64,000 nt of DNA, taken from Haliotis rufescens. Its lineage: Eukaryota. This document shows, piece after piece, positions 3,545 to 64,000 of this stretch. Location of the stretch: the NCBI RefSeq assembly GCF_023055435.1, contig NW_025964353.1:806001-870000 (forward strand), read 5' to 3'. The notes under the pieces were generated by a model. It was not told the DNA's origin. It did not search any database and was given only the letters and a program-made list of their open reading frames with translations. How positions within the stretch are numbered: position 1 is the first letter of the stretch; each line of letters starts with the position of its first letter. The position numbers and the translations under genes are program-made.

Positions 3545-6500
3545 ATGTCACAGTTAGGAATTATCATTTTGATTGTGTGTATTGGACCTGTGTTTATTCA
3601 TGGAGTAGATTTTCCTCCACATTGGATCAAATCTGGAGTTGACGTCAGCACGGAAACAACTGTTGAAAAGTCGGACTCAACTGCGGACGATACGATTCGA
3701 TACTTCAAGAAATGGAGAATTGCGGCGGATTATAGGAAAGCATCTACTATATTTATGGTGAAACTTTTTAATTTCCTACAGAAGGGATCGCCCGTTGCTA
3801 AAGCGGCGGGTGGAAGGTTGAACCAACCCGATCTGAGATTGTCCGACACCATTAGGAGTTTCTCCACCAAAGGTAAGAGCACGGGGACATGTATAGTACG
3901 AAGAATGGATGTTTGTATTGGACAATGTTAGGATGATAAATATTCGTCCATTATATAGTTGAGAATACCAATGTCACCAATAGAACCATACCCATGAAAT
4001 AGGTTGTGAAAACATCAATTTCAAATGTTTTACAAGTAGTGGCCGTTATTAGCCAACTGAAATTAGATGAACGAGATATGTTGTTTCTGGTGTTATAAAG
4101 CAGGATCACGAAAGAAATTTAAGGACATTATTATACGAATTTGAAAGGTTTAGCAAAACGAATGAACAGTGGAAGGGATTTATTGGTGGTTTTGTTCAGA
4201 GAATCATCAACTCGGGTCCAAATCAAAAACAACAAACAAACAGAATAATTTCGCATATGTAACTAAATACTTGAAACACTTTAGTTTAAAAAAAATGTTT
4301 AACATGTACAGAGTAGTTGAATGTTTAAAGCAATATATTTGCGATTTACAAACAACATTTAACCAACCATTATGTCATGAAATGTTTAGGCCCGGAACAA
4401 CTGCATACGTTCGAAGTGTACCATACTTAAATACATTTTGTGTGTAAGTTCATACAATACATATGACTTTTATATGAATGGATTTCTTGAGACAGTTCTG
4501 AGAAAAACATGGTATACGCAACTTCGTGTTCAACATGGAACACTTGGATGTGTACGACAATCCCAATTCTCTTATACGTAAACATGTTGGCTGTCTGTGA
4601 TATATCTATGCTACACAACCGGCCTATTCACCATGACATTTGCATTAGAAACAAGTGTGATGCATGTATGTGTTACATACAATCAACTAAGTAGGTTCTG
4701 CGATACATGGTTCACGAGCCACACTAAGAATATCATTAAAAAACATTTAAATATGGAAACAACCAAGTTTCGCGAAATTTCCTGATTTATGTCTGAAATA
4801 TATCATAATTTGGCAATGCTTTTCTGATAATTAACAAGTTATTATATATATGTGTTGCCAGAAGTACGATGTAAAAATAGATGATGTGCTATTATACGTT
4901 ATCTAAGGGAAGGGTATAACAACTGAAGCTAAAGACAATCACATATAAATATTGGTATTGGATCAGTTTATGAACTATTTCATATGTAAAGAGAATTATT
5001 CAATCCTCGAAAACAATAAATACATGTTTGATTTATTATAATTGGAATAGAAATACTTCTTCGGTTTCCTCACTATGAAAAACTAAAACTGAGGAACAAA
5101 TGCTCAATATATTGTGGCCTATGACTATGGCAGATAGTTTTTCGAGATAAAAGTGTAGTTAATATGGTTATTTTTTATCATTTCAAAATAATAGCAGTTG
5201 CATCTGTTCACATGACTAAAGTTTTAAGTGTATATGAAACATGATTTTATGCTAATGATACTTCGGTGTAAATGACAAATAGCGTCAAATTAGGATATTT
5301 GCTTACGAGTCAACATCAACTGCCTGGTAAAAGAAAGTACACACCCATATTTGATGGTGGTTAAAAATGAAACCAACGAGAAATTGTTATTCGATCGCGA
5401 TGTATTCGATACATATTTGTGTTTTGGACCTTAAGTTTGCAATGTTTTGTATCGGAGACTATTACCAGCCAAGTAACGATTTTTTTATAACGTTTGTATT
5501 GTTTTGGTCAAATTCAATTTTCAAGTACATACTTTTTTTGCCCTGCAGTTTACATTTAATAATATATTCATTATGTTCCTGAATTTGTCTCTTACATTTT
5601 GTCTGGATTGTCACTTTTATAAAAAAAATAATTTAAAAACTACTTTTAATTTCAACTTAAGAGGAGTTCTGATGAACCTGTAATTAAGGGTAAACTAAAG
5701 CAATCCGTATGCTATCTTACAGTTGGGAAGGGCACGTGTCGTGATAATGACGCAGGGGCCTTAATCGTTTTTTTGTCAATTGAAGATGAACACATATTTT
5801 ATTCATCTAGCCACAGTATTCGCATAAGCGTAGTTTATACCATTATTATTATTATGGTTGTTGTTGTTGTTGTTGACGGAGCTGATAGGCCACACACCTA
5901 TAAAGATACACACATTGTTACTTTCTTTAAGTTTACACCGGATGCTATATTATTGTGTATATACACACATTCCAACATTAATTGTCGGGCAAACGAAAGG
6001 CAATTGGATTTGGCCCAAACATTATAAATGTTATGAAAACGTTATTTGGGGGGGGGGGGGGGGGGGGGGGGGGGTGGCAGAAACCTATGATTGTGGATTC
6101 GAATCCCGGTTCGCCCCAATTATGTTTCTAGGTTTGTCAGCGGCATACCCGTGCTCGTGAGTTTCACCGAAGTGGTAAACGTCTGGGACCTGCATCACTT
6201 GGGGCTTTCCTCCCACATTAAGCTGACACGCCGTGATATAACTGGAATACTGTTAAAAGCGGCGTTACACTCACTCACTCACGTTACTTGGCGCTGAAAA
6301 CAGTCGCCGAAACACTGTAAACTTAAGGTCCAAAACAAAAACTATTATACCCGACCCAAATGCATCCCCATCGAGTAACAATTTCTTTTTTGTTTCATCT
6401 TTAGCCTCCATCAAACATGGGTGTATACTTTATGTCTGTTGTCCGACAGTTTATGTGTACTAACGTCAAAATCAGTGCATAACCACTCCCATATTAGGAG

Positions 6501-7482
6501 CGATTTCTCATCGCAACCATGACTGTCAAACATTAATAAGTTGTGGGTCAGGTGGCCTCGTGTACTGAAATATATCTATCAATCTTGCTTATATGTTGTC
6601 TAATATTTCACATATGATACATATATACGTATTTTTGCAGAAATTCTACAACCAGAAGGAAGTAAAAAAGTGGAAATGCGTTTTAAGATTCCCTTTTTAC
6701 CCCGAAATGAACGACTTCGATTGGCTGAGTTCCGCTGTTTGCGTAAAAAATCCCGAAACGTAAGGACTAAGAAGTACAAGATCAAGATAGACATTTTCAA
6801 GGGAGGAAGTCTTGTCAGCAAATTTGCCTTTAGGACACCGCCTTTTGTTCACGCTGAATATGATGTGTTTGACGTCAGTCGCGCACTGACCCCTTGGATC
6901 AACGGTTACCATGGTAACGTCACGATAAACATTAAACTTCCATTGAAATATACCAAAACACTTTCTAAAAACAAGTCAAAGAAAGCTGATTCATTAATCG
7001 TCTTTTACCTGGAAGATGATGAATTCCTGAAAAATATGTATGAAAGTTACACAGCGGAAGAACGTGCGTCTAAGACGTCAAGTGACGTTATGTCACGTGG
7101 GAAGAGGGCGTCACGTGGCAAGAATCGACGTCATCGAAAGAACAGGAGATGGAACAAAGCAGGAAAGCGAGAGGGCTGTCATGTGTACGACTTTGACGTT
7201 GACTTCAACACTATCGGATGGGGACAGTGGATCATTCATCCAAAACGTTTCAATTCCAAAGTCTGTTACGGCAGCTGTCCCTCCCCCATCGACATCCGCT
7301 ACAAGCCCACCAACCACGCGATGTTGCAGTCACTGATGAGAACCAAACGGTCAAACTCTGCACCCGTCCCCTGTTGTGTTCCTACCAAGTTAAAAGCACT
7401 GAGCATGTTATACTTCGAATATGACGAAATTGTGGTACGTCACCACGAAGACATGATTGCTGATGAGTGTGGTTGTCGATGA
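3545..7482 (+). CDS. nodal: Nodal, TGF-beta superfamily ligand, 389 aa; exon 1 3545-3872, intron 3873-6640, exon 2 6641-7482
   Basis: Signal peptide MSQLGIIILIVCIGPVFIHG. Donor AAG|GTAAGA and acceptor tttttgcag|AA join in phase 1 (328+842=1170 nt). Furin site RGKR. Seven-cysteine domain with Nodal-type motifs IGWGQWIIHP, PTNHAMLQSL, CCVPTKL-x-x-LSMLY and RHHEDMIADECGCR. Confidence 0.92.
6048..6074 (+). repeat. Poly-G tract (about 27 nt) in the nodal intron
   Basis: Uninterrupted G homopolymer. Confidence 0.9.
6090..6282 (+). mobile_element. tRNA-derived SINE with (CACT)n tail
   Basis: B-box-like ggattcgaatccc at the 5' end; 3' end cgccgtgatataactggaatactgttaaaagcggcgttacactcactcactcac is shared with other SINE copies in the window. 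Confidence 0.65.
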
Positions 7483-10937: not shown

Positions 10938-12222
10938 CTGACTGACTGATATAGGAGATTTAACGTGCGCTTTCCGACTGTAGCGTATTTCGCACACGGG
11001 CCTGGCCGGACCATTTAGTGTATTCCGAAAAGGGTGAAAGTGGTGTGTGCAACCCAAGAGGGGGCTTTTAGGGTTTGCTTATATTGAATTTTTGGAATTT
11101 TTAAATTTGGAATAAATGCCGAGGTGGGTGGAGGAGGGAACTAAGGGAGCCGGGTGAGGTGGGTGTTTGTATGTTTATTGGATTTTGGATTGGTAGATTA
11201 ATGAGTTTTTAGATGCGCTTAATTAGATCTGTTTTGATTAGGAATACGCCTAGGGCCTTGAAGTTTTCTAGTTTATTTTGAGGGTTTAGTATTTCATCTA
11301 GAGTAGGAACCTTATTTAGATTGAGGGTAGTTTGTAGTGTGGTTCTGTGTGTTTGGTAGTGGGTGCAGTGGATGAGTGCGTGTTCTGTGGTTTCGGGTTG
11401 TTTGCAGTGTGGGCAGTTGCCTGTGGTGTGCCTTTTAAGTTTTTTTAGGTGGTTATTTAGGTTCGTGTGTCCTGTTTGGAGTTTTGTAATTAATCTGTCA
11501 ATTTTTTTAGAGGGGTGTAGGATTTTAGGTTTGGCTAGTGGTTTTCTAAGCACTTTTTTTATTTGGCTATTTGAGTTTTGATATTGATTATGCCATTTTC
11601 TGGTTATTTTTTTGTTTGTTTACACTTTTAATTTCTGATTTTGAGATGGGTAGGTTTAGGCTTATTTCTGGTATTTTGAGAGATAATTTAGCTGCTTTAT
11701 CGGCGCTTTAGTTGCCGTAAATTCCTACGTGGGCGGGGATCCACAAGAAGGTTATTTGTTTGCCTGCTTTTGTTAGGTCGTTGGAGCTTTTAAGTATTTG
11801 CTTTATTAATTTAGGCCGTTTTTTTGTATTTTTGTTTTGGAGGGCTTGTAGTCCACTAAGGGAGTCGGTGAGAATTAGGATTTTATTGTTGTTTTTAGAT
11901 TGTTGGTTATGCAGGGCTGAGGCCATACCCATAAGTTCGGCCGTGAATATAGATTGGTTGTTAGAGAGTCGTTAAGATTGTGTGGATATAACTGGTTGTG
12001 TGGTATGGACTCCGAAGCCTGTGTGGTTGGAGATCGGGTCTCAAGATCCGTCAGTGTAAATGTGACACCAATTTGGCCAATTTTCGTGTATGTATGCAAG
12101 TGTGGTGGTTTTAGCTATGTTTGGGTCGGTTTGTTTATTTATTTGGTTAGCTAGCGTTGTGTCTATTTTGGGTATTTCGAGTTTAGGGGTGAAGATATTT
12201 GATTTTTTGCAGTTTTGTTTAA
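10938..12222 (-). mobile_element. I-group LINE 3' fragment B (RNase H, CCHC knuckle, 3' UTR, (TCAG)n tail)
   Basis: RNase H motifs HIYTDGS, ILILTDSLSGLQAL and FLWIPAHVGIYGN; C-terminal CPHCKQPETTEHALIHC. Frameshifted. Tail reads ctgactgactga on the + strand. Confidence 0.85.
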
Positions 12223-14160
12223 GAATGAGAGATATAGTACATAATATATATAGTAGGTGGAGGATTAACAGTAATAACAATTGCATACATGAGTGGGATA
12301 ACATTGGTAGGTGTTGACATCAAGGGGATGATGCTGTCACAGCACGCGGACAGAGAACACATAGGTGGAAGCCAATAGGGACATGAAGCCAATAAACAGG
12401 ATAAGTGATTATTGCTTGATGAGTTCATAGTAGGCGATGGGATGAAATAGCCTTGATCTCTGTTGATTGATGGCTTGTGGCGGCGAATGTGGACAGCTTC
12501 AGTTAGTTTTCTTTTAGTGAAATCATGCAGGTTGTTGGCGAGGATTTGGACGTTGTCCCAGTTGATGTTGTGATTGGGACAGTTGCTGATATGGTCCGAG
12601 ATGGCTGATGTGCTGTCGGATTTAATGGTGCAGGTTTTGTGCTCTTTCATTCTGGTGTTGATTGGACGGAATGTTTCACTTACGTAAGATTGTCCACAGT
12701 TGCAGTCAATTGTGTAAACTACACCTTTAGGCTCTTGGGGTTTGGTTGTGTTACTGCCGTTGGCTCTTAGCAGGGTGTTGAGGGAGTTGGAGCTGGTGAA
12801 GTGGGTGATGATGTTGGCTTGCTGTTTGAGGAGGCGGCTGATGATGTGGGAGGCTTTTCCTATGAACGGGAGGGCGATGCGGAAGGGCGCTGATTCGGGT
12901 TTAAGGGTCGCAGGTCTGGGTGTGGGATAGAGTACAGAGGCGATGACTTTGTCGACGAGATTGGGTGGATAATTGTTGAGGTCGGTGAAGACTTGGCGGA
13001 CGTGTTCGATCTCAGGTTTGGGGTCAGCAGTAGAAAGGTTGATGGCTCGTTTGGTGAGGGTGGAGTTGATGCCAGTCTTGGTTCTAAGAGGGTGGTTGGA
13101 GTTGAAGTGGATATACTGGTCGGTGTGGGTGGGCTTCCGGTAGACACTGGTTTGGATTCTGTTTGTTGGGCTTCTGGAGACGAGGACATCTAGGAAGGGT
13201 AGTCGGTTGTCCTTTTCTATTTCGATGGTGAACTGTACTCAGGGGTGTTGTTGGTTAAGATGTTGTAGTGGCAGGGTTGGGTTTTGGTCTTGTTTAAGGA
13301 AGACAAAGGTGTCGTCAACCAGCAAATAGGTTGGAACGGGTGATGTGGTGAGGGCTTGTTGTTCGAAGTAGGTCATGTAGATTTCAGTAAGTATAGGAGA
13401 CAGTGGGGATCCCATGGGTAGGCCGTGTATCTCTTGATGGTACTCGTCGCCCCTGGCGAAGTAGGTAGAGGAGATACAGGCGGTGGTGAGGGCGATGATA
13501 GATTCGGTGGTTAAGCTAGTTTCAAGAGGAGTTTCAGTGATGCGACGGAGGAGAACTTGCAGAGTGTCATCTATGGGTACGTTGGTGAAGAAGTCTACTA
13601 CGTCGTAACTGATGATTTGATCTGGATCGGTGGTGTTCTTGAGTTTGGAGCAGAAGTCCGTGGAGTCCGAGATGAAGGAGTCGGCTATTATCCCACTCAT
13701 GTATGCAATTGTTGTTACTGTTAATCCTCTACTGCTAATCCTCCACCTACTATAATATTACATATATCTTTACCTATATCCCTCATTCAGTCTTGCTAGA
13801 CAACGGTATAAGGATCTATACCGAAACGTCGCTTTTCACAGTATTAAAGAAGTTGTCATCCATAAAATTGTGTCTAGCTTGATATTCGATGCCGTTTGGA
13901 TGATAAGGGTCCACTGTCCAGGATGATGATGATCATGAGTTAATCGAGGGATGTTTTAAGGATACTAATGTTGATGTAAACTATATATATGAACAAAATG
14001 TTCTGTGAGGCGCTACAGGGATACATTGTAGGGTAGAATATTTCCAAGATAGATCGAACAATTAACCAGTGAAGGACATATTATTGAGACATTTTATCAA
14101 TACAAGTTTATTAGTATAAATAATAATAATAGCACTGATACATTTTATGCTTGGTGGACG

Positions 14161-15421
14161 TCACCGACAGCCACATTCAGAGGCGATCATGTCCTCGTGA
14201 TGACGTACAACGACTTCGCCATTCTACACAACAAGGGGAGGGAGCGATGTTGGAACGCTTGCTTCTCATGAGTGACTGCAACATGGCGTGGTTGGTGGGT
14301 TTGTGGCGGACGTCGATCGGGGAGGGACAGTTTCCGTGACAGAATTTGGAGTTGAAGCGTGTAGGGTGGATGATCCACTGTCCCCAGCCGATTGTGTTGA
14401 AGTCCACGTCAAAATCGTACAGACGACAGCCTTGTTTCTTTCCTGCCTTATTCCATCTTCTGTTCTTGCGTCGACGACGTCTGATTATGTCAGGTGCAGA
14501 TCTCTTACCACGCGATGCGCTATTCTTCAATCCATCGTATGTAGACTGCTCTTTAAACAAAACGTTTTGAAGAAAGTCCTGATTTTCCAAATACAAAACA
14601 AGTAAGTTTTCATAGACTTCGGATGTTGTTTTCGAAAGAAGTCGGAAGAAAGTCCGCGGCATTTCCACATGAATGGTGACGTCACCGTGGTAACCGTTGA
14701 CCCAGGCAGTGATGGCTCGACTGATGTCAAAAACAAAATCTTCACGGTGTGTAGTAGGTTGGACTCTGATGGTAACTTTTCTTGCGATCTTCTTTCCCTT
14801 GAAAATGCTGACCTTGACCTTGTACTTCTTTAGAAGGGAGAGAGCGCGTGGGCACCGGAACTCAGCTAATCGGAGACTCTCGTCCTTAGGCAGACTAGGT
14901 ATCTTGAACGAAAGGCCAAATCTGCTGCTTTCATTGATTTTACTCATGTCTGGAACAGGAAAACAGTATCATATGAACGAGCAAATAAAAAGTGAAGCAT
15001 TTTCCCAAAATAGATTCTTGTTTGGAATCAGAAAGACATTTTCCGGGTTTGTATTGCACATCTACACATCAGTCAGTCTGGTGTTAAGCTTACCTTTAGC
15101 TGCGAAGCTCCTGATAGTGTCGACTTTCATAAAATCAGCTGTTTTGAGCTTTCTGCCTGCTGCTGTTGCAAGTGGTGCCCCCTTTTGAAGAATATTAAAC
15201 AATCGCAGCATGAATTTGGTTGAATCCTTTTGATAATCAACTGTATGACTCAGCTTGCTGACAAAAGGGGATATGTCTGCAACATGTTTTCCCTCATTCC
15301 GGTAAGTGTGGGGTTTGACTTGAAACTCCTGGTTTAGCCATTGTTTGGGTGAAGCTAAGCGACGTGCTCCAACATTGGCGAGATATGTCAGAAATAAAAT
15401 GGCGATTTTACACTGCGACAT
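14161..15421 (-). pseudogene. nodal: Nodal type A copy 1, frameshifted; exon 1 15421-15094, exon 2 from 14949
   Basis: Exon 2 is 789 nt to the homologous stop versus 827 nt in intact copies. A 38-nt deletion between 14225 and 14226 turns CCVPTKL...ECGCR into CCVEWRSRCTSSRGHDRL* (stop at 14177), losing the terminal CxC. Confidence 0.88.
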
Positions 15422-15990
15422 TTTCTGATAGCTGGATTGATGTTTTGGTTTGTCAGTGTAGGATGCAGCAATGCAAGTGATGATGTGATAGCTTCAGTGT
15501 GGCGTTTTATACCAGACCCTACTACTTGTGTAAACAAGACAAGTGGTAACATAATGGTCGGGTGTTGGCGAGGTGTCCATATTCCTTCAGGCAAAGATTA
15601 TAATCTGTCGTAAGGACATGTCGCGTGCATCAGATCTAGTTGTAGCTTCTTCATGTAAAATAACACCTTCTGGTTACATCACTACATCATACCTTTAATG
15701 CAAGGTTTAGAGGAAAATAACCTAATATTTTGTGAAATGAACAATTAAACACACATTAGCCATACATATTCTGATACCTCGGATGCTTTAAATTAGTAAT
15801 TAATTTTGCTAATTATTCGTGAAATGTCTACTTTAAAAGGTAATCTTATGACAGTGGAGAGACTTCTTGGATTTTGTATGTTTTCAATTTGTTTGATTTT
15901 ACTGTTCAAATATGTACTTATACGCTGTTTCTCATAGATATAAAATATATTCAATATTCATAGATAAACAAGGATTTCGATATCCATTCA

Positions 15991-16110
15991 CCAGACAGGG
16001 GCGATCATCCCCAATCCACAGTAACAAGCCCGTCTCCCTGTCTCATCTGACTGTCGAACAATCACTGTCTGATCCTGTCTTCAGGATCACTCTCATTGCG
16101 CTAATCTAAG
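15991..16110. promoter_or_regulatory. Conserved upstream block rich in Smad-binding GTCT/AGAC motifs, with FoxH1-type AATCCACA at 16013-16020; repeated in each unit
   Basis: ccagac...ccgtctccctgtctcatctgactgtcgaacaatcactgtctgatcctgtct is almost identical in type B spacers (58385-58500, 62502-62620) although the flanks are diverged. Confidence 0.6.
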
Positions 16111-16466: not shown

Positions 16467-17514
16467 TTTATGTTATGTGTGTTACCTTCACTCCAAGTCC
16501 ATTTACGTTGGAATCTAATGATTCACTTCAAGATATCAGAACACATCTTCTCTTAAGGAAACTGTACATGGCATATGACGATCACATATAGAATATTGTT
16601 TTTGTCTGTTCCAAACACACACACTTTCTTGCGTTTTAAATGACGAGGGAAGTGTATGGGTACATGTCATGAAACGAGATTGTCTATCATCAAAACAATA
16701 CAAAGATCAATTATTTTAAATCCTTTTCAGCTGAGTGTCTATCAATATCCCGACATGTGTTATTGCGGCAATGTTTATGACGAAGTCGCCATGCATGTCA
16801 GACACCACAGTCAGCATATGCAGAAGTGTCAGACAGTTAGCATGTCTCCTGTGTTATCATCATTGCTATTTGGCCACTTGTTGTTGAATCAATATGGTGA
16901 AAGTGAATCAAAAGACATAATTAACTTCTTGATCTGTGAAGAATGAACAATTTGTACATCTCTGGATATAACCAAAGTCGTTATTTTCTGATTGGCTCTA
17001 TTAGAATTCCAAAGTGGATTCCAATTTTCAGCTACTCGTTATGCTGAGAGTAACTGAACTATCTCAATAAACAAACTTTATATAATTTGTTAAAATCACT
17101 GCTCCTTGAAAATAAAATATGTTCAATGTAATAACATATCTGTTCCAAACCATTTGCTGAATAGCAGTAAAATCATATTGCGTTGTCTATTTTCCGTTGC
17201 AGTATGCTCTTTAAAACAACAGGAATGGAAGACACTCATTTGAATGAAGAACTATTGTTTTCAGCGAAATTATGTGTAAGCATGAGAATATTTTCTCCAT
17301 AAATTATCTTTAAACTAATTCCTAAATGATGTATCTTTTAATTTCTACTATTGATAGTGAAGTAGGTTGATACATTTACGAAAAGGTTATTATTAGATTT
17401 AACTCTACACACTGTATCAGAAACACTCCATTAATTCGTTCTGCTGTTCAACATAAAGGCAACGTTAGACGCCGAAAAACAACCATCATTACTTGTAACA
17501 AGCCTGTCTTCCAG

Positions 17515-18438: not shown

Positions 18439-19737
18439 TCACCGACAGCCACATTCAGAGGCGATCATGTCTTCGTGATGACGTACAACGACTTCGCCAT
18501 CCTCCACGTACATCATACTGAGAGGTTCCAGTTTGGTAAGGACACAACAAGGGGAGGGAGCGACGTTGGAACGCTTGCTTCTCATGAGTGACTGCAACAT
18601 GGCGTGGTTGGTGGGTTTGTGGCGGACGTCGATCGGGGAGGGACAGTTTCCGTGACAGAATTTGGAGTTGAAGCGTGTAGGGTGGATGATCCACTGTCCC
18701 CAGCCGATTGTGTTGAAGTCCACGTCAAAATCGTACAGACGACAGCCTTGTTTCTTTCCTGCCTTATTCCATCTTCTGTTCTTGCGTCGACGACGTCTGA
18801 TTATGTCAGGTGCAGATCTCTTACCACGCGATGCGCTATTCATCAATCCATCGTATGTAGACTGCTCTTTAAACAAAACGTTTTGAAGAAAGTCCTGATT
18901 TTCCAAATACAAAACAAGTAAGTTTTCATAGACTTCGGATGTTGTTTTCGAAAGAAGTCGGAAGAAAGTCCGCGGCATTTCCACATGAATGGTGACGTCA
19001 CCGTGGTAACCGTTGACCCAGGCAGTGATGGCTCGACTGATGTCAAAAACAAAATCTTCACGGTGTGTAGTAGGTTGGACTCTGATGGTAACTTTTCTTG
19101 CGATCTTCTTTCCCTTGAAAATGCTGACCTTGACCTTGTACTTCTTTAGAAGGGAGAGAGCGCGTGGGCACCGGAACTCAGCTAATCGGAGACTCTCGTC
19201 CTTAGGCAGACTAGGTATCTTGAACGAAAGGCCAACTCTGCTGCTTTCATTGATTTTACTCATGTCTGAAATAAGAAACAGGATCATATTAAAAAGTAAA
19301 TAAAAAGGTGAAGCATTTTTCCAAAATAGATTCTTGTTTGGAATCAGAAAGATATTTTCCGGGTTTGTATTGCACATCTACACACCAGTCAGTCTGGTGT
19401 TAAGCTTACCTTTAGCTGCGAAGCTCCTGATAGTGTCGACTTTCATAAAATCAGCTGTTTTGAGCTTTCTGCCTGCTGCTGTTGCAAGTGGTGCCCCCTT
19501 TTGAAGAATATTAAACAATCGCAGCATGAATTTGGTTGAATCCTTTTGATAATCAACTGTATGACTCAGCTTGCTGACAAAAGGGGATATGTCTGCAACA
19601 TGTTTTCCCTCATTCCGGTAAGTGTGGGGTTTGACTTGAAACTCCTGGTTTAGCCATTGTTTGGGTGAAGCTAAGCGACGTGCTCCAACATTGGCGAGAT
19701 ATGTCAGAAATAAAATGGCGATTTTACACTGCGACAT
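18439..19737 (-). CDS. nodal: Nodal type A copy 2, 384 aa; exons 19737-19410 and 19265-18439
   Basis: Signal peptide, 144-nt GT-AG phase-1 intron, RGKR site, intact seven-Cys domain; private change CCVP to CCVL. Confidence 0.88.
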
Positions 19738-22700
19738 TTTCTGATAGCTGGATTGATGTTTTGGTTTGTCAGTGTAGGATGCAGCAATGCAAGTGATGAT
19801 GTGATAGCTTCAGTGTGGCGTTTTATACCAGACCCTACTACTTGTGTAAACAAGACAAGTGGTAACATAATGGTCGGGTGTTGGCGAGGTGTCCATATTC
19901 CTTCAGGCAAAGATTATAATCTGTCGTAAGGACATGTCGCGTGCATCAGATCTAGTTGTAGCTTCTTCATGTAAAATAACACCTTCTGGTTACATCACTA
20001 CATCATACCTTTAATGCAAGGTTTAGAGGAAAATAACCTAATATTTTGTGAAATGAACAATTAAACACACATTAGCCATACATATTCTGATACCTCGGAT
20101 GCTTTAAATTAGTAATTAATTTTGCTAATTATTCGTGAAATGTCTACTTTAAAAGGTAATCTTATGACAGTGGAGAGACTTCTTGGATTTTGTATGTTTT
20201 CAATTTGTTTGATTTTACTGTTCAAATATGTACTTATACGCTGTTTCTCATAGATATAAAATATATTCAATATTCATAGATAAACAAGGATTTCGATATC
20301 CATTCACCAGACAGGGGCGATCATCCCCAATCCACAGTAACAAGCCCGTCTCCCTGTCTCATCTGACTGTCGAACAATCACTGTCTGATCCTGTCTTCAG
20401 GATCACTCTCATTGCGCTAATCTAAGCTTATTACTGTTGTCATTAGTTTAAGAAAACAACTCGTCAGGTTCAAGAGTAACCCATTACACGCCACAGTGAA
20501 TGTTCATGGAACGGATTACACCTTTGTTTCTTTAGATTGCAGAGATTTTACTTCACTCCTATCCTTTTCGCAAACATTTACGCAGTATGTAAGATCAATA
20601 TAAGCATAGAAAGTATCACTACCTACATATCATTTCTACTTTTCCCTAACAGGAATATTTCCAAGATTGGTATCTACACGTTGGTATCGTCTGTAATATA
20701 ACTACATTGTGTTTGTTAAAGTAGACACAATGTATGGATAACAACTTCTTGGAAAGGCGACGTTTCGGTATACATACTTATATTTATGTTATGTGTGTTA
20801 CCTTCACTCCAAGTCCATTTACGTTGGAATCTAATGATTCACTTCAAGATATCAGAACACATCTTCTCTTAAGGAAACTGTACATGGCATATGACGATCA
20901 CATATAGAATATTGTTTTTGTCTGTTCCAAACACACACACTTTCTTGCGTTTTAAATGACGAGGGAAGTGTATGGGTACATGTCATGAAACGAGATTGTC
21001 TATCATCAAAACAATACAAAGATCAATTATTTTAAATCCTTTTCAGCTGAGTGTCTATCAATATCCCGACATGTGTTATTGCGGCAATGTTTATGACGAA
21101 GTCGCCATGCATGTCAGACACCACAGTCAGCATATGCAGAAGTGTCAGACAGTTAGCATGTCTCCTGTGTTATCATCATTGCTATTTGGCCACTTGTTGT
21201 TGAATCAATATGGTGAAAGTGAATCAAAAGACATAATTAACTTCTTGATCTGTGAAGAATGAACAATTTGTACATCTCTGGAGATAACCAAAGTCGTTAT
21301 TTTCTGATTGGCTCTATTAGAATTCCAAAGTGGATTCCAATTTTCAGCTACTCGTTATGCTGAGAGTAACTGAACTATCTCAATAAACAAACTTTATATA
21401 ATTTGTTAAAATCACTGCTCCTTGAAAATAAAATATGTTCAATGTAATAACATATCTGTTCCAAACCATTTGCTGAATAGCAGTAAAATCATATTGCGTT
21501 GTCTATTTTCCGTTGCAGTATGCTCTTTAAAACAACAGGAATGGAAGACACTCATTTGAATGAAGAACTATTGTTTTCAGCGAAATTATGTGTAAGCATG
21601 AGAATATTTTCTCCATAAATTATCTTTAAACTAATTCCTAAATGATGTATCTTTTAATTTCTACTATTGATAGTGAAGTAGGTTGATACATTTACGAAAA
21701 GGTTATTATTAGATTTAACTCTACACACTGTATCAGAAACACTCCATTAATTCGTTCTGCTGTTCAACATAAAGGCAACGTTAGACGCCGAAAAACAACC
21801 ATCATTACTTGTAACAAGCCTGTCTTCCAGTGAGTGAGTGAGTATTGTTTTACGCCGCTTTTAGCAATATTCCAGCAATATTACGGCGGGGAACACCAGA
21901 AATGCTGTCTTCCAGACTCGTCTAACTAGAATAATCATAGTCTAACCCTGTTAATGATTAAACTGCTAAACTTTTCCACCAATAATCCTATCCAATCGAT
22001 GTCCTTGTTGGTGAAATGAAAACAGTTCATCACACTATTCTGTCAGAGATTGAAGACATTTTTATTGGTATTTACAGAACTGACTTTGAGGCCCTTCGCG
22101 ATCTGCATGGGTAGACTCAGTCGCTTGTAGTTGCAAGCAAATATATTAAAGTGACAGTACAGCTATTTGAGAGTGTTCATAGAAATATCGAAGTTGGATG
22201 TAAACATGACAGGGAATATTATTAGGTTCAACAACTTCTTTATTATTCAAATACATGTACAACGTTCCATGGCTACTTCTTGTACCTTCACCTGATGAAG
22301 TTGTGTATGTGCAATAAAGAAGTTGTTATCCATAATAATACTCCTTGTCACGAGTACATGTTTTTGAAAAAAAAAAACAACAATAATTTATATTTAGGAA
22401 CTAAAATGCTGTCACAAGTACGCGTTCAACTAATTTACCGATTGTGAGGTGCATTCAAATGTTGCAGGAATATTTCTTTTACAATCGTTTATGATGGAGT
22501 AAGCCACATAGACTGAAGGGTTTATCTTCACATTGTGAGTGCAAAATGTTCTTTGTAGCACTAGAGGTACACATTGTACAGTGTATTATCAGAACATGTC
22601 CAAGACAGATCGAACAATTAACCAGTGAAAGACAAAGCATCAAGACATTTTATCAATACAAGTTTATTAGTATAAATAATAATAGCACTGATACGGTTAT

Positions 22701-48624: not shown

Positions 48625-49922
48625 TCACCGACAGCCACATTCAGAGGCGATCATGTCTTCGTGATGACGTACAACGACTTCGCCATCCTCCACGTACATC
48701 ATACTGAGAGGTTCCAGTTTGGTAGGGACACAACAAGGGGAGGGAGCGACGTTGGAACGCTTGCTTCTCATGAGTGACTGCAACATGGCGTGGTTGGTGG
48801 GTTTGAGGCGGACGTCGATCGGGGAGGGACAGTTTCCGTGACAGAATTTGGAGTTGAAGCGTGTAGGGTGGATTATCCACTGTCCCCAGCCGATTGTGTT
48901 AAAGTCCACGTCATAATCGTACAGACGACAGCCTTGTTTCTTTCCTGCCTTATTCCATCTTCTGTTCTTGCGTCGACGACGTCTGATTATGTCAGGTGCA
49001 GATCTCTTACCACGCGATGCGCTATTCTTCAATCCATCGTATGTTGACTGCTCTTTGACAAAAACGTTTTGAAGAAAGTCCTGATTTTCCAAATACAAAA
49101 CAAGTAAGTTTTCATAAGCTTCGGATGTTGTTTTCGAAAGAAGTCGGAAGAAAGTCCGCGGCATTTCCACATGAATGGTGACGTCACCGTGGTAACCGTT
49201 GACCCAGGCAGTGATGGCTCGACTGATGTCAAAAACAACATCTTTATGGTGTGTAGTAGGTTGGACTCTGATGGTAACTTTTCTTGCGATCTTCTTTCCC
49301 TTAAAAATGCTGACCTTGACCTTGTACTTCTTTAGAAGGGAGAGAGCGCGTGGGCACCGGAACTCAGCTAATCGGAGACTCTCGTCCTTAGGCAGACTAG
49401 GTATCTTGAACGAAAGGCCAAATCTGCTGCTTTCATTGATTTTACTCATGTCTGAAATAAGAAACCGAATCATATAACAAGTAAATAAAAAGGTGAAGCA
49501 TTTTCCCAAAATAGATTCTTGTTTGGAATCAGAAAGATATTTTCCGGGTTTGTATTGCACATCTACACACCAGTCAGTCTGGTGTTAAGCTTACCTTTAG
49601 CTGCGAAGCTCCTGATAGTGTCGACTTTCATAAAATCAGCTGTTTTGAGCTTTCTGCCTGCTGCTGTTGCAAGTGGTGCCCCCTTTTGAAGAATATTAAA
49701 CAATCGCAGCATGAATTTGGTTGAATCCTTTTGATAATCAACTGTATGACTCAGCTTGCTGACAAAAGGGGATATGTCTGCAACATGTTTTCCCTCATTC
49801 CGGTAAGTGTGGGGTTTGACTTGAAACTCCTGGTTTAGCCATTGTTTTGGTGAAGCTAAGCGACGTGCTCCAACATTGGTGAGATATGTCAGAAATAAAA
49901 TGGCGATTTTACACTGCGACAT
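48625..49922 (-). CDS. nodal: Nodal type A copy 9, 384 aa; exons 49922-49595 and 49451-48625
   Basis: Intact; 143-nt intron; most divergent intact A copy (HHKDVV, VFVK, YDYD, DVRLK). Confidence 0.9.
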
Positions 49923-52259: not shown

Positions 52260-54390
52260 AAATGTTCTTTGTAGCACTAGAGGTACATAATGTATAGTGT
52301 ATTATCAGAACATGTCCAAGAAAGATCGAACAATTAACCAGTGAAAGACAAAGCATCAAGACATTTTATCAATACAAGTTTATTAGTATATGCATCAGAT
52401 CTAGTTGTAGCCTCTTTATGTAAAATAACACCAACTGGTTACATCACTACATCATACCTTTAATGCAAGGTTTTGAGGAAAATAACCTAATATTTTGTGA
52501 AATGAACAATTTATCACATATTACCCATACATATTCTGATACCTCGGATGTTTTAAAATTTTTAATTAATTTCGTTAGTGTATATAACCCTTTAGTGAAA
52601 TCGCTACTTTAAATGATAATATTTTAACAGGGAAGAGACTTCTTGGATTTTGTATGTTTTCAATTTGTTTGATTTTTCTATTCAAATATGTACTAGTACG
52701 CTGTTTCTCATGAATATAAAATATATTCCATATTCGAACATAAACAAGGATTTCGATATCAGTTCCCAGACGGAGGCTATCATGCCTCTTCAACAGAAAC
52801 AAGCTCGTCTCCCTGTCTCATCTTACTGAGGTTCAAGAGTAAGGTTCAAGAGTAACCCATTACACGCCACAGTGATTGTTCATGGAACGGATTATGCTTT
52901 TGTTTCTCTAGATTGTATAGATTTTACTTTATTCCTATCCTTGTTCGCAAACAGTTACGCAGGATGTGAGATCAATATAAGCATAGAAATATTTCCAAGA
53001 TTGGTATCTACACGTTGGTATCTTCTGTAAAATAACTAGATTGTGTACGTTACCTTTACTCCAATTTCATTTACGTTGGAATCTAATGATTCACATTAAG
53101 ATATCAGAACACATCTTCTCGTAAGGAAACTGTATGTGGTATAAAGATCACATATACAATAGTGTTTTTGTCCGATCCACACACAAACACTTACTTCCGT
53201 TTAAAAGGGCGAAGAAAATGTATGGGTACATGCCATGAAACTAGATTGTCTTACATTTAAACATTATAAAGATCAAGTATTTTAAATCTGTCTCAGCTGA
53301 GCAAAATGTTTCGACATGTGTTATTACAGCAATATTGATGACGAAGTCGCCATGTATGTCAGACACCACAGTCAGCATATGCAGAAGTGTCAGACAGTTA
53401 GCACGTCTCCGAGGCTGTCATCATTGCTATTTGGCCTCGTGTTGTAGAAACAATATGGTAAAACTGATAATCAAATGACATAATTGACTTCTTGATCTGT
53501 GAAGAATGAATAATTTGTACATCTCTGGATATAACCATAGTCATTATTTTCTGATTTTTCTCCATTTAGAATTCCAAAATGGATTACAATTGTCAGCTAG
53601 TCGTTATACTGAGAGTAACTAAACTATCTCCACAAACAAACTTTAAATGATTTGTTAAAATCACAGCTCCTTGATGAAAAGAAAATAATATGAAGACGCT
53701 CGTTTGAATTTGAAACTATTGTTTCATGATAACGTATTATGTGTAAGCATGATAATATTTTCTCTATACATTATTTTAAAACAAATACCTTAATGTATCT
53801 TTAAAATTCTACGGTTCATATGAAGCAGGTTGATACATTTACGAAAAGTGTTTTATAGATTTAACTCTGCACACTGTATCATAAATACTCCATTTATGCG
53901 TTCTGCTGTTCAACATAAAGGCAGCACCAGACGCCGAACGACAACCATCATTACTTGTAAAAAGCCTGTGTTCCAGACTCGTCTTACGAGAGTAGTCTCA
54001 CCCTGTTCATGATTTAAGTGCTAAACTTTTCCACCAATAATCTCTTTCCATCGATGTCCTCGTTGGTGGAATGAAAGCAGTTCATCACACTAGTCTGTCA
54101 GAGATTGAAGACATTTTTATTGGTATTTACAGAACTGACTTTGAGGCCCTTCGAGATCTTTATGGTTAGGCTCAGTCGCTTGTAGCTGAAAGAAAAATAT
54201 TAAAGTGACAGTACAGTTATTTGAGAGCGTTCATTGGAATATCGAAGTTGGATCATGGGCTACTCCTTGTCCCTTCACCTGACGACATTGTGCAAGTAAA
54301 ATAAAGAAGCTGCTGTCCATAATAATACTCCTTGTGATACGCGTACATGTTTTTGAAAACAAAATGAATGAATAATTTATATTTTGGAAC
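52260..54390 (-). pseudogene. Gene-less relic unit: 3' flank fused directly to the upstream spacer, whole nodal gene deleted
   Basis: Junction ...gtttattagtata|tgcatcagatctag... at 52390/52391 joins sequences about 1575 nt apart in intact units (18366 and 19942 in copy 2). The following spacer is a diverged type A homologue. Confidence 0.85.
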
Positions 54391-56241: not shown

Positions 56242-57674
56242 TCATCGACATCCACATTCAGAGGCGATCACGTCCTCGTGATGACGTACAACAACTTCGC
56301 CATCCTCCACGTACATCATGCTGAGAGGTTCCAGTTTGGTTGGGACACAACACAGGTCGGGAGCGGCGTTGGAGCGCTTGCTTCTCATGAGTGACTGCAG
56401 CATGGCGTGATTGGTGGGTTTGAATCGGATGTCGATGGGGGAGGGACAGTTTCCGTGGCAGAATTTGGAGTTGAAGCGTGTCGGGTGGATGATCCACTGT
56501 CCCCAGCCGATCGTCTTGAAGTCCACGTTAAAGTCGTACAGACGACAGCCTTGTTTCTTCCCTGACTTGTTCCATCGTCTGTTCTTGCGATCTCGACGTC
56601 TGCTTGTGGCATGTGCTGATCTTTTAGCGCGTGATGCTATATTACCTAATCCATCAAAAGTGGAATGCTCTTCGACTTTGTAGGTTTCCAAAAGGTTTTG
56701 AAGAAAGTGGCGATTTTCCAAATAAAATACAAGTAAGTATCCATAAGTTTCGGATGCTGTTTTCAAAAGAGTTCTGGAGAATGTCCGTGGTATTTCCACA
56801 TGAATGGTGGCGTCACCGTGGTAACCGTTGATGAAGGTATTAATGGCTCGACTGATGTCAAATACATAATATTCACCCTGTGTAATAGGTTTGACGCTGA
56901 TGTTAGCTTTTCGTGCGATATTCTCTCCCTTGCGAATGATGACCTTGACCCTGTACTTCTTTAAAGGAGATACAGAGCGTCTGCACCGGAACTCAGCTAA
57001 TCGGAGACGTTCGTTCTCAGGTAGACTAGGAATCTTGAACGATAGCTCGACTCTCTTTCTTACATTCTTTTGTGTCATGTCTGGAATTAAACATACATTG
57101 CATGAAAACCAAAGTTGTACAAATAAAACACTTTCATCAAGAATATTCTTGCAGTGAATGCTTAACGTCTGCGAGCCATTCATCTAATTTCCATCCCTAT
57201 TTGGCATTTTATGCGCATTGCAATTGTTTCGGCAGACAATCGAGACTGATTATTCCCTGGCCTTGATATATTGAATTTCTTACTTTTTTCATATTGTTTG
57301 TTAATGATTAAAATCGTATGTGATCTGACTCCAGGTTAAAGATTACCTTTAGCCGTGAAGCTCCTGATGGTGTCTGCTTTCTTGAAATCAGCTGTGTTCA
57401 GCTTTCTGCCTGCCGCTCTTGCAAGTGGTGCCCCTTTTTGAAGAATGTTAAACAATTGTACCATGAGTTGTGTTGAAGGCTTTTGATAATCAACTGGATG
57501 ACTCAACCTTCCAACAATAGGGGACAGATCTGCAAGAGGTCTTGCACCATTCCCATAAGTATCAGTTAGGACTCGAACATCTTGGGTTAGCAATTGTTTG
57601 GGAAAATCAATACCTCGTCCTCCAACATTTCCGACACATATCAGAAAGAAAATTGCCATTTTAAACTGCGACAT
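56242..57674 (-). CDS. nodal: Nodal type B copy 1, 388 aa; exons 57674-57347 and 57080-56242
   Basis: Signal peptide MSQFKMAIFFLICVGNVGG; donor AAG|GTAATC, acceptor ttccag|AC, 266-nt intron; RAKR site; intact seven-Cys domain ending HHEDVIASECGCR. Confidence 0.9.
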
Positions 57675-60365
57675 TTTCAGACAGTTGGATAGATATTTTG
57701 GTGTGCAAGCGTAGGATGTAGCAATGCAAGTGATCATGTGATACCTCCCGTGTAGCGTTATATACCAGACCCAACTACTTGTGTATACAAGACAAGTGGT
57801 CATTCAATGGCCGGGTGTTGGCGAGGTGTTCAAATTCCTTCAGGCAATGCTTATAATCTGCTATAGAGAAATGGTAGTCGCGTGTATTATGTGTAATTGT
57901 ACGCATCGTATGTAACATAAACACGTATCTGCTACATTAATATATTTTTAAGCGTTACTGTGATTTGACAGATAATATATTTTGCAAACGAATAATTTGA
58001 AAAAAATAATTACATAGATCTTATTACCATATGTTTCAAGCAAGGTGTTTATGAAAATATTCTGTAATATACTACTGTACATGTGGACGTTGTCTTCTTA
58101 AGGCATGAAATATAAGTTCTCTGACATTAAACATTGTTATTTTAATATACGCATAAGCTATATACAGGATTCCGATGTTGTCAGATTGAATAAAGCTTTC
58201 TTGATTCAATGAAATTGCACAACTAATTCTGATCTTACATGTATATTCAGTATATTTATATATTGGTGCCAAGTCCCAGAAACTGTATATGCTTCTTTAA
58301 ATCACGGCTTATGCATATTCACAATTCGTCAGTGTAAGATGGCCTTCATCTTTACAGGTACATACTCTTTTCACTATTCAGTTCCCAGACAGCGGCTATC
58401 ATGCTCCTCCACAGTAACTAGCCCGTCTCCCTGTCTCATCTGACTGTCGAACAATCACTGTCTGATCCTGTCTCCCGGATCACACTCATCCCGTTAATCT
58501 CAGCTAGTTCCTAGTTTTCTTTAAGAAAACACCTCGTCAGCTTTTAGAGTGAACGATTACACGCCTCAGTGAATATTCATCAAAGCGATTCTTAAATGCT
58601 GATTGCAAGGTTTCATTGCACTGTTGTTATTGTGAGCACATATTCTCATAGTATGTAACAATCAAGTTAAGCATATAGAAAGTACCCAAATATAAGATAT
58701 TAGTTTCATATTTCTGAACTACAATGTTCCATTATTGCTATCTCTCTGTTTACATGTTGCTACTTTCTGTAATACACTGTATGTGTTAGTTCCTCGCCAA
58801 AGCTATTCATAAGAGGAATTGAAGGATGCATTTCAAGTAGTTAAGTTCACCAAGCTTCTTAGGAAACCAAAGTGATCAACACAGCAACATTTTCTCCCGT
58901 TTTATGAGGATAAAGCATGTAATGACACATGTCGTGATAAGAGATTATCTATCATCAAAACATCATAAAGATCAAGTATTTTTAATCCTCCTCAACTAAG
59001 TGTGTATCAGTATCCCGCCATGCCTTGGTGCAACAACGTCGATGTAGACGTCGCCATGTCAGACAACACACTCAGCCTCAGTATGTTAGCATGTCTCCTG
59101 TCTTATTATTATTATCATTGCTCTGTGGCCCTGTGATCTTGAAACAACATGAAATTGTTAACACTGAAAGGACATTATTGACTTCTTTGTTAAATAAATA
59201 ATTGGCACATCCCTGAATGTTTTACAAATTATTACTTACTTATTGGCGTTATTGGAATTCAAAAATGGATTAAAACTATCAGCTTATCACTAACCCGAGA
59301 AAAAATAAACATTGCCTTCATTGCCGAAATATATATTATAATGAAATAAAAAGAGGGTTCCTGGAACATACCATAATATTCTGAATAAGATTCTTGTGTC
59401 TTTGATTTGGAATCCTTAATCATAGTCCACTTTCAATTGGTGGTAAGTAATTAAGGAACAGACAGCTACAGAGGTTTCGAAAACATTGTATGACTTGTAG
59501 CCACTCTAGTTAAATGATGCAGTCTTGTTTGGAATGTATATATGAAAACACAAAGTTTTCGCCGTATCCATATATAATTCGTCTTTCCGGACGTTTTTTA
59601 CAAGGAATGGCACCACCCGGAAATGTCGCTGACACCACATTCGTTGACGCATATAGAAAACATGGTTAGGATATGGCGTGTGAAAATCAATTTATGCTTC
59701 TCAACATACGTTAAGTTTTTTTTATTTCGCTTGCTGCAGACATGTCACTTTCACTGGTGGCATCTTTGTTAATCTCCTTTGTGTCAAAGGCATGCAACTA
59801 CTTGTGCTAATCAGGTTATCATGATACACTTCAAGAGTGTTTTCTCATGATAAAAATGAGGAGTGCGCTCTTCCTATTTATCACACCTATTTTAAGTGTG
59901 AATAAGACAATTCGTATGCATTCCATGTATTGCATTGAAAAGGTAATTTCAGGTGACATGCAAGCACAAACTATTTAGCGTTGGTAACGTATGACCGATG
60001 GAAGGTGAAGTGCAATCGAAAGTTGTACGAGTATGTATTTTCTAATTGTTTATAAAAGAGTAACCTCCTTGGACTGACTAGTTGGATGTATCATATTTGA
60101 ATATAAATTGTTCTGTGTAGCGCTAAAGAAATAATATAACGATGATTCAAGAAAGATAGTTGGGTACAGTGTAACATTTATTACAAACGATCCATTTCTT
60201 TTACATGAAGCAAATCAGTATCTACAAAATAGCACCATTGTATATCTATATATCACAGTTACAATTGGCCGTGCCAAGGTGTCATGACACAGATTGGTTG
60301 TTTGGCAGCTGATTACGATCAGAATTCATGACATAGTCCACTGGTGTTCATGGGAGACGTCAACG

Positions 60366-61798
60366 TCATCGACATCCACATTCAGAGGCGATCATGTCCT
60401 CGTGATGACGTACAACAACTTCGCCATCCTCCACGTACATCATGCTGAGAGGTTCCAGTTTGGTTGGGACACAACACAGGTCGGGAGCGGCGTTGGAGCG
60501 CTTGCTTCTCATGAGTGACTGCAGCATGGCGTGATTGGTGGGTTTGAATCGGATGTCGATGGGGGAGGGACAGTTTCCGTGGCAGAATTTGGAGTTGAAG
60601 CGTGTCGGGCGGATGATCCACTGTCCCCAGCCGATCGTCTTGAAGTCCACGTTAAAGTCGTACAGACGACAGCCTTGTTTCTTCCCTGACTTGTTCCATC
60701 GTCTGTTCTTGCGTTCTCGACGTCTGCTTGTGGCATGTGCCGATCTTTTAGCGCGTGATGCTATATTACCTAATCCATCAAAAGTGGAATGCTCTTCGAC
60801 TTTGTAGGTTTCCAAAAGGTTTTGAAGAAAGTGGCGATTTTCCAAATAAAATACAAGTAAGTATCCATAAGTTTCGGATGCTGTTTTCAAAAGAATTCTG
60901 GAGAATGTCCGTGGTATTTCCACATGAATGGTGGCGTCACCGTGGTAACCGTTGATGAAGGTATTGATGGCTCGACTGATGTCAAATACATAATATTCAC
61001 CCTGTGTAATAGGTTTGACCCTGATGTTAGCTTTTCGTGCGATATTCTCTCCCTTGCGAATGATGACCTTGACCCTGTACTTCTTTAAAGGAGATACAGA
61101 GCGTCTGCACCGGAACTCAGCTAATCGGAGACGTTCGTTCTCAGGTAGACTAGGAATCTTGAACGATAGCTCGACTCTCTTTCTTACATTCTTTTGTGTC
61201 ATGTCTGGAATTAAACATACATTGCATGAAAACCAAAGTTGTACAAATAAAACACTTTCATCAAGAATATTCTTGCAGTGAATGCTTAACGTCTGCGAGC
61301 CATTCATCTAATTTCCATCCCTATTTGGCATTTTATGCGCATTGCAATTGTTTCGGCAGACAATCGAGACTGATTATTCCCTGGCCTTGATATATTGAAT
61401 TTCTTACTTTTTTCATATTGTTTGTTAATGATTAAAATCGTATGTGATCTGACTCCAGGTTAAAGATTACCTTTAGCCGTGAAGCTCCTGATGGTGTCTG
61501 CTTTCTTGAAATCAGCTGTGTTCAGCTTTCTGCCTGCCGCTCTTGCAAGTGGTGCCCCTTTTTGAAGAATGTTAAACAATTGTACCATGAATTGTGTTGA
61601 AGGCTTTTGATAATCAACTGGATGACTCAACCTTCCAACAATAGGGGACAGATCTGCAAGAGGTCTTGCACCATTCCCATAAGTATCAGTTAGGACTCGA
61701 ACATCTTGGGTTAGCAATTGTTTGGGAAAATCAATACCTCGTCCTCCAACATTTCCGACACATATCAGAAAGAAAATTGCCATTTTAAACTGCGACAT
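60366..61798 (-). CDS. nodal: Nodal type B copy 2, 388 aa; exons 61798-61471 and 61204-60366
   Basis: Same structure as B1; variants WIIRP and EDMI. Confidence 0.9.
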
Positions 61799-64000
61799 TT
61801 TCAGACAGTTGGATAGATATTTTGGTGTGCAAGCGTAGGATGTAGCAATGCAAGTGATCATGTGATACCTCCCGTGTAGCGTTATATACCAGACCCAACT
61901 ACTTGTGTATACAAGACAAGTGGTCATTCAATGGCCGGGTGTTGGCGAGGTGTTCAAATACCTTCAGGCAATGCTTATAATCTGCTATAGAGAATTGGTA
62001 GTCGCGTGTATTATGTGTAATTGTACGCATCGTATGTAACATAAACACGTATCTGCTACATTAATATATTTTTAAGCGTTACTGTGATTTGACAGATAAT
62101 ATATTTTGCAAACGAATAATTTGAAAAAAATAATTACATAGATCTTATTACCATATGTTTCAAGCAAGGTGTTTATGAAAATATTCTGTAATATACTACA
62201 GTGGAAGTTGTCTTCTTAAGGCATGAATTATAGATTCTCTGACATTAAACATTGTTATTTTAATATACGCATAAGCTATATACAGGAATCCGATGTCCTC
62301 AGATTGAATTACGCTTTCTTGATTCAATGAAATTGCACAACTAATTCTGATCTTACATGTATATTCAGTATATTTATATATTGGTGCCAAGTCCCAGAAA
62401 CTGTATATGCTTCTTTAAATCACGGCTTATGCATATTCACAATTCGTCAGTGTAAGATGGCCTTCATCTTTACAGGTACATACTCTTTTCACTATTCAGT
62501 TCCCAGACAGCGGCTATCATGCTCCTCCACAGTAACTAGCCCGTCTCCCTGTCTCATCTGACTGTCGAACAATCACTGTCTGATCCTGTCTCCCGGATCA
62601 CACTCATCCCGTTAATCTCAGCTAGTTCCTAGTTTCCTTCAAGAAAACACCTCGTCAGCTTTTAGAGTGAACGATTACACGCCTCAGTGAATATTCATCA
62701 AAGCGATTCTTAAATGCTGATTGCAAGGTTTCATTGCACTGTTGTTATTGTGAGCACATATTCTCATAGTATGTAACAATCAAGTTAAGCATATAGAAAG
62801 TACCCAAATATAAGATATTAGTTTCATATTTCTGAACTACAATGTTCCATTATTGCTATCTCTCTGTTTACATGTTGCTACTTTCTGTAATACACTGTAT
62901 GTGTTAGTTCCTCGCCAAAGCTATTCATAAGAGGAATTGAAGGATGCATTTCAAGTAGTTAAGTTCACCAAGCTTGTTAGGAAACCAAAGTGATCAACAC
63001 AGCAACATTTTCTCCCGTTTTATGAGGATAAAGCATGTAATGACACATGTCGTGATAAGAGATTATCTATCATCAAAACATCATAAAGATCAAGTATTTT
63101 TAATCCTCCTCAACTAAGTGTGTATCAGTATCCCGCCATGCCTTGGTGCAACAACGTCGATGTAGACGTCGCCATGTCAGACAACACACTCAGCCTCAGT
63201 GTGTTAGCATGTCTCCTGTCTTATTATTATTATCATTGCTCTGTGGCCCTGTGATCTTGAAACAACATGAAATTGTTAACACTGAAAGGACATTATTGAC
63301 TTCTTTGTTAAATAAATAATTGGCACATCCCTGAATGTTTTACAAATTATGACTTACTTATTGGTGTTATTGGAATTCAAAAAATGGTTTAAAACTATCA
63401 GCTAATCACTAACCCGAGAAAAAATAAACATTGCCTTCATTGCCGAAATATATATTATAATGAAATAAAAAGAGGGTTCCTGGAACATACCATAATATTC
63501 TGAATAAGATTCTTTTGTCTTTGATTTGGAATCCTTAATCATAGTCCACTTTCAATTGGTGGTAAGTAATTAAGGAACAGACAGCTACAGAGGTTTCGAA
63601 AACATTGTATGACTTGTAGCCACTCTAGTTAAATGATGCAGTCTTGTTTGGAATGTATATATGAAAACACAAAGTTTTCGCCGTATCCATATATAATTCG
63701 TCTTTCCGGACGTTTTTTACAAGGAATGGCACCACCCGGAAAGGAAGGGTTTCACTCTTCACAATTTTACTGCCAACAATGATTGATCGTTGATTAATTC
63801 TGCCGAATGTCGCTGACACCACATTCGTTGACGCATATAGAAAACATGGTTAGGATATGGCGTGTGAAAATCAATTGATGTTTCTAAACATACGTTAAGG
63901 TTTTTTATTTCGCTTGCTGCAGACATGTCACTTTCACTGGTGGCCTCTTTGTTAATCTCCTTTGTGTCAAAGGCATGCAACTACTTGTGCTAATCAGGTT

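Follow-up and report, generated by a model that had tools for sequence, protein, structure and literature searches.

An almost invariant, probably regulatory 66-nt block with Smad-type motifs upstream of every full unit of an abalone nodal array

A tandem array of nodal paralogs in two unit types

The window, the whole 64,000-nt stretch of Haliotis rufescens DNA that was analysed, contains a single two-exon TGF-β gene on the plus strand, S, and two-exon paralogs of it arranged as an inverted tandem array (Table 1). Nine units of type A open the array; after a gene-less spacer (D) come 14 full units of type B and, last, a B unit that lacks exon 1. Twelve of the full B units and the one without exon 1 lie past B2, outside the window, and run to G000:C575:927820; over the window and the neighbouring stretches the array is ~108 kb long. 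G000:C575:820161-927820 (window 14161-64000 plus loci L027-L032) holds 23 full nodal units of two types together with two remnants. Reading frames are intact in 21 of the 23 full units, the frameshifts being in A1 and B12. The B array is interrupted for ~5 kb between B10 and B11 (G000:C575:903262-908666). A broken retroelement lies between S and the array (window 11209-13757), with a reverse transcriptase match at 13239-13757 and a GIY-YIG-like stretch at 12219-13238 that we take to be Penelope-like. Short dispersed repeats are present in each A spacer (window 20714-20750 and about 21810-21900), the first of these being covered at very high contig depth by each of the four runs.

Table 1 Features of the nodal locus in window coordinates, with the FoxH genes in genome coordinates
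Feature	Position	Strand	Remarks
Nodal gene S	3545..7482	+	Single, slow-evolving; 2.8-kb intron
Nodal paralog A1	14161..15421	-	Two exons; frameshift near C-terminus; ATG 15421
Proximal promoter and 5' leader	15422..15610	-	TATAAAA at 15505-15511
Element copy A1	15991..16110		120 nt
CAGA box CCAGACA(G)	15991..15998		Kept in A and B within diverged left flank
GTCT/AGAC motifs, copy A1	15993, 16032, 16040, 16067, 16077
FoxH1 consensus AATCCACA	16013..16020		Likely recently derived
AATCCACA, other positions	20329, 24637, 28945, 33265, 37573, 46203
Invariant block, copy A1	16015..16080		66 nt; four GTCT, four CTGTC repeats
Nodal paralog A2	18439..19737	-	Intact, 384 aa
Element copy A2	20307..20426
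Nodal paralogs A3-A9	Beyond A2; last at 48625-49922		Spacing ~4.31 kb
Element copies A3-A9, start positions	24615, 28923, 33243, 37551, 41859, 46181, 50502
Spacer D	52391..54253		Gene-less degenerate A-type; element at 52766-52828
Nodal paralog B1	56242..57674	-	Intact, 388 aa; ATG 57674
Element copy B1	58385..58503		Reads CCTCCACA, without FoxH1 consensus
Nodal paralog B2	60366..61798	-
Element copy B2	62503..62621
Three FoxH genes (L060-L062)	G000:C101:18137119-18147166 and 25048521-25048760		Divergent

Protein comparisons identify the array genes and S as nodal, in agreement with the preliminary description of this DNA. The best solved-structure match is a Nodal/BMP2 chimera in the PDB, the nearest named proteins are nodals of Haliotis and other gastropods, and in a tree of 29 selected proteins S and the array share one abalone clade (support 99/98). 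The array clade also contains at least 15 H. cracherodii accessions, five members from one 94-kb H. rubra contig and two from H. asinina, so this assembly is not alone in having the expansion. Types A and B form separate clades, each with H. cracherodii orthologs, and inside each type the copies cluster by species (support 86-97), which fits concerted evolution within types. Synonymous divergence between A and B (pS 0.28, dS 0.35; four-fold sites 30/118) is even along the gene (dS 0.32-0.41). As dN in the mature domain is 0.043 against a dS of 0.32, both A and B genes have been under selection. No polymorphism is shared between the types in 1,339 exon and promoter columns, and outside the block described below A and B have otherwise been kept apart.

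The proximal promoter of the array carries fixed A/B differences at 26 of 190 columns and is homologous to the promoter of S (68-75% over 170-184 nt). One putative RNA run contained contigs over exon 2 and over exon 1 plus the leader, none of which spanned the intron, and did not cover the element; we take this as at most a weak hint of expression and give it no weight here. Metagenome contigs held no relatives, either by protein search or by a 28-nt pattern.

The upstream block, its motifs and the FoxH1-type site

The element lies 570-689 nt upstream of the ATG in type A and 711-829 nt upstream in type B, as had been claimed, and the core reported as near-identical between the types within diverged flanks has an invariant extent of 66 nt (16015-16080). 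Across 22 copies (A1 was omitted from the counts of fixed differences and block polymorphism) none of the 66 columns carries a fixed A/B difference, against 54 of 208 in the right flank (26%; Fisher p 6e-8) and five of 23 in the left, so that the block is indeed more conserved than the spacer in which it sits. A 66-nt run without a fixed difference arose in 0 of 20,000 simulated 3-kb alignments with p=0.25. The block is also the longest exact A/B match of the whole unit, extending over 66 nt against B11 (16015-16080), 54 nt against B1 (from 16027) and 49 nt against B4; the next longest, of 29 nt, is in coding sequence. The element had been described as copied with every unit, which holds for the 23 full units and fails for the two remnants: D keeps a decayed half and the last B unit has no element.

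All 24 matches found by a genome DNA search with the block were inside the array, as was every hit of two exact 18-mers taken from it (23/23 and 22/22), which bears out the expectation that it is not a dispersed repeat. No homology of the block was detected at S: local alignments against the intron and against 3.5 kb and 9 kb of upstream sequence did no better than shuffled controls (in the best case 25 of 200 shuffles matched the score), for which reason a look-alike near 2385 was discarded. Neither the upstream region nor the intron of S contains a comparable motif cluster. A possible second module was noticed at window 16640-16900 and in each unit; it can be aligned between A and B with 32 fixed differences in 195 columns and retains the words GTCAGACA and CATGTCTCCTG. 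A B polymorphism count of 69 for this second upstream block stems from misalignment and was disregarded.

Five GTCT/AGAC motifs per 120-nt element were recovered in all 23 gene-bearing copies, as first described, and three in the gene-less copy D. The CAGA box beside the block is an exact match to the definition given in the available part of PMC11063908. Enrichment of GTCT/AGAC above background is modest: the cluster gave P=0.03 (A) and 0.016 (B) in a 92-nt window fitted to it and P 0.11 (A) and 0.05 (B) at 120 nt, with 1000 shuffles each, and 4 of 54 background 3-kb blocks had a comparable cluster. Four copies of the longer word CTGTCT/AGACAG, which was picked after inspection, lie within 92 nt, a density reached in 0/1000 shuffles and 2/54 background blocks. 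The most over-represented word is CTGTC, present five times in the element (1/54 background blocks); four of the five extend to CTGTCT and one lacks the trailing T. GTCT makes up just 16 of the 66 invariant bases, and the other 50 positions are equally invariant. Between the motifs there are an E-box (16044; CATCTG) and a Sox-type site (16057; AACAAT), as we presume them to be. Block and cluster together stand about 0.5-0.8 kb upstream of the conserved TATA promoter. Smad4-type sites such as these could equally take BMP or other TGF-β input.

The variants of the FoxH1-type site are those originally listed, namely AATCCACA in A copies 1-6 and 8, AATCCACG in copy 7, ATTCCACA in copy 9 and CCTCCACA in type B. 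The consensus is present in 7 of 24 copies and in none of the 14 B copies, D or A9, and the first two bases of the site, which distinguish the variants, fall just outside the invariant block. There is one consensus per unit at most, upstream, and none in the array introns; with a background of 37 in 174 kb, the 8-mer is expected by chance at 2.5% per 120 nt and ~60% per 4.3-kb unit. A-type contigs of all three sister species have T at the second base (place 20330) at the whole A depth and read ATTCCACA. Since this is also the reading of A9, AATCCACA looks like a recent gain homogenised within type A. The simplest history would have ATTCCACA ancestral in type A and one mutation spreading through A1-A8, and AATCCACA probably arose recently and incidentally and was carried along by concerted evolution. 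The preliminary description had treated copies 7, 9 and type B as having an altered site; given the three sister species, the direction is likely the reverse. A further FoxH1 consensus in the intron of S (window 6092-6099) lies inside an apparent SINE-type repeat and is therefore probably there by chance.

A genome carrying such a site would be expected to encode FoxH, and three FoxH genes were found, all with W.DS[IV]RH including the helix-3 Asp, Arg and His; for one of them the best PDB match is FoxH1 (E 5e-27). The helix-3 Asp is tied to TGTG(G/T)ATT binding in the portion of PMC9701222 at hand, and FoxH is known in spiralians from parts of PMC7535936 and PMC9050690. PPNKS, given as the Smad-interaction motif of FoxH in the part of PMC11063908 cited above, is absent from the three FoxH reading frames, and six frames of the 30 kb around contain no PPNK; the best look-alike is PPDKK, and the motif may still lie in a remote additional exon or have diverged. 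One FoxH has an eh1-like FSIDSIL, and all three share a short P[PF]..[LV]LY[HQ]T stretch. Elsewhere in this genome, ten tandem forkhead genes with near-identical domains (G000:C1:48668270-48820630; L041, L044-L052), which we assume to be FoxAB-like, form a second amplified developmental regulator.

Selection, conversion and what may read the block

We consider it likely, from its conservation, that the block is a functional element. The main challenge to this is that it could be a functionless gene-conversion tract, in which one A/B exchange made the 66-nt match and then seeded repeated short conversions. Such a tract, which we judge unlikely, would explain the sharp edges and the 100% identity. 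Polymorphism within types is at a normal level in the block (3 and 2 of 66 sites vary, vs 5.8% and 3.9% upstream), and no difference is fixed there (MK-type Fisher p 0.003 in comparison with the right flank). One polymorphism in the 66 columns is shared by A and B, against none in the 1,339 columns of exon and promoter, although the site in question, the C/T at 16031, is a CpG, where two independent mutations are conceivable. The B copies show all four two-site haplotypes, B11-B14 carrying a different block haplotype. In its left flank D matches B rather than A: 35 columns there contain 6 A-only changes, compared with 8 in 494 columns elsewhere, a pattern suggestive of past conversion between the types at this place; the window 15978-16014 is either a B-to-D conversion tract or a stretch of accelerated change in type A. 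The comparison of polymorphism with divergence cannot itself separate the two explanations, since constrained coding sites are polymorphic too (12 non-synonymous and 6 synonymous in the mature domain, A1 and the frameshifted B12 omitted). In one sister species a 66-nt contig lies exactly over the block at ~2x the flank depth with 0 other letters, and in the other two the contigs break at the same edges. The type-B state in the sister species is taken from this collapsed double-depth contig, the comparison with these species covers 40 of 78 differences, a position outside those 40 not being read as identical, and at only about 2-3% divergence the sister species add little power.

Spacer D points away from conversion. 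It is located between A9 and B1, is closer to A than B is, has neither gene nor promoter, and has half of the block deleted. The 38 nt of block that it retains carry four D-only changes, no A-only and no B-only change, and D differs from A1 at 4/39 positions in the block vs 37/350 and 76/613 in the flanks; its block copy has decayed at the neutral rate, the same as its flanks. Blind conversion does not predict a decayed D that sits between A9 and B1 and yet was not homogenised, and because D decayed neutrally a single old exchange is not enough. By our estimate the A and B lineages should have accumulated ~7 changes after D branched off, and 0-3 are observed. Furthermore, the 91%-identical mature-domain exon has no such tract (longest run 29 nt), and the tract coincides with the densest group of motifs in the spacer. 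The evidence is mixed, with the decay of D favouring selection, and the shared polymorphism and the B-like flank of D favouring conversion. The two may coexist, as a selected identical block can be a ready seed for conversion.

Our preferred explanation, held tentatively, is a selected, FoxH-independent and probably Smad-bound cis-element copied with each unit; that Smads bind the block is plausible at about the same strength. A functional enhancer core could instead be read mainly by non-Smad factors, such as a bHLH protein on CATCTG, a Sox protein on AACAAT or some factor specific for the repeated CTGTC, in which case the array would answer to an upstream input instead of its own signal. The same conservation evidence serves this rather less probable account, in that all 66 nt are invariant and not GTCT alone, CTGTC is the most over-represented word with one copy that is not CTGTCT, and S lacks the cluster; in favour of Smads are the other four CTGTC copies, which extend to CTGTCT, and the exact CAGA box, which is retained on its own within the diverged flank. 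The Smad-plus-FoxH1 architecture originally proposed, a chordate-style autoregulatory enhancer in which the FoxH1 site would tune individual copies, now seems very improbable. The exact consensus does touch the block in seven A copies, the three FoxH genes have the specificity Asp, and the adjoining 35 nt changed 6 times on the A lineage, more than elsewhere. However, the site is missing in 17 of 24 copies and lies partly outside the block, type A of all three sister species reads ATTCCACA, there is a single site only, with a chance frequency of 2.5% per 120 nt and ~60% per unit, and the FoxH frames lack PPNKS. Least probable of all is a dispersed-repeat fragment or a small structured RNA: type A has a local hairpin about 16070-16089, but Rfam gave no match of the element at E<=1, its folding z is only -1.2 to -2.0, and the A and B structures differ, while the confinement of all genome and 18-mer matches to the array largely refutes the repeat reading.

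On the Smad-bound explanation that we prefer, the 66-nt block and the CAGA box would form a cis-regulatory module under purifying selection upstream of all 23 full units. Phospho-Smad2/3-Smad4 would bind the clustered sites with non-FoxH partners, for which the E-box and the Sox-type site between them are candidates, and the bound complex would raise transcription of the adjacent nodal copy. As the array product is Nodal, Nodal itself would be the most likely ligand. Each unit would then add both ligand and responsive element to a positive loop, the gain of which would scale with copy number. Nodal autoregulation through the block is possible but doubtful, and we are equally reserved about the wider picture, in which abalones would have a fast-evolving Nodal array of >20 copies, each unit with its own Smad-responsive, FoxH-independent feedback enhancer and copy number multiplying the gain. 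That type A gained a FoxH input on top of this is highly unlikely.

Significance and known systems

The element is real and striking, and the sequence evidence suggests that it is probably regulatory, plausibly Smad-responsive and most likely FoxH-independent. If its proposed role is true, it would be, as far as our searches reached, the first element for nodal autoregulation to be mapped in any mollusc. In snails, both left-right asymmetry and the coiling of the shell are set by Nodal, and the locus bears on how nodal is turned on and maintained in molluscs. Its 66-nt candidate comes with built-in controls: two unit types that have diverged, a gene-less copy that has decayed, and S without the element. 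A direct test of spiralian Nodal feedback through Smads without FoxH thereby becomes possible. Should the block be only a conversion tract, it would still be a clear case of short stretches being exchanged between array types that otherwise stay separate. The array itself may prove more interesting than the element. Its gene copies are already in public annotations; among open-access titles and abstract starts, a set that leaves subscription journals mostly outside, we found neither an abalone nodal array nor a molluscan nodal enhancer. The accessible parts of PMC13544226 make no mention of a nodal array, and parts of PMC6824466 and PMC5104510 also belong to the known context.

Nodal duplicates occur in other gastropods, with nodalA/B in Crepidula and duplicates in Patella (PMC9907556, in part), and like the abalone array these are lineage-specific snail nodal paralogs. 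Unlike it, they number two, and the same part of PMC9907556 describes neither an array nor a cis-element. Tandem amplification of a nodal paralog is shared with Xenopus, where Xnr5 and Xnr3 form tandem clusters of uncertain high copy number (from sections of PMC12344233). The abalone array differs in its independent origin, in its two long-separated unit types (dS 0.35) and in its one invariant upstream block. Maternal factors activate Xnr5, which is not known to depend on Nodal feedback.

The vertebrate ASE is intronic and has paired conserved FoxH1 sites. Positive feedback by Nodal is general in deuterostomes according to portions of PMC10794066, and in vertebrates it runs through the FoxH1-dependent ASE (PMC4736825, in part). 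Like the ASE, the abalone element is non-coding, lies beside nodal and contains Smad-type motifs, and abalone FoxH has the same DNA-reading Asp. In contrast, the abalone element is upstream of the gene, and two features that define the ASE are lacking, a conserved FoxH1 site, the lone consensus here not being conserved, and PPNKS in FoxH.

In the sea urchin, nodal is maintained through Smad sites combined with other inputs. Nam et al. 2007 and Range et al. 2007 are said to have described cis-regulatory modules of this gene that contain Smad sites. Sea urchins are without FoxH, as stated in a part of PMC4077281. The abalone element is predicted to resemble these modules in its FoxH independence and in combining clustered Smad sites with other inputs. 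The sea urchin gene is single-copy and reporter-tested, whereas the abalone locus is a fast-evolving paralog array known from sequence alone; homology at the sequence level would not be expected between the two. By analogy, the sea urchin modules may provide a closer working analogue of the abalone element than does the vertebrate ASE.
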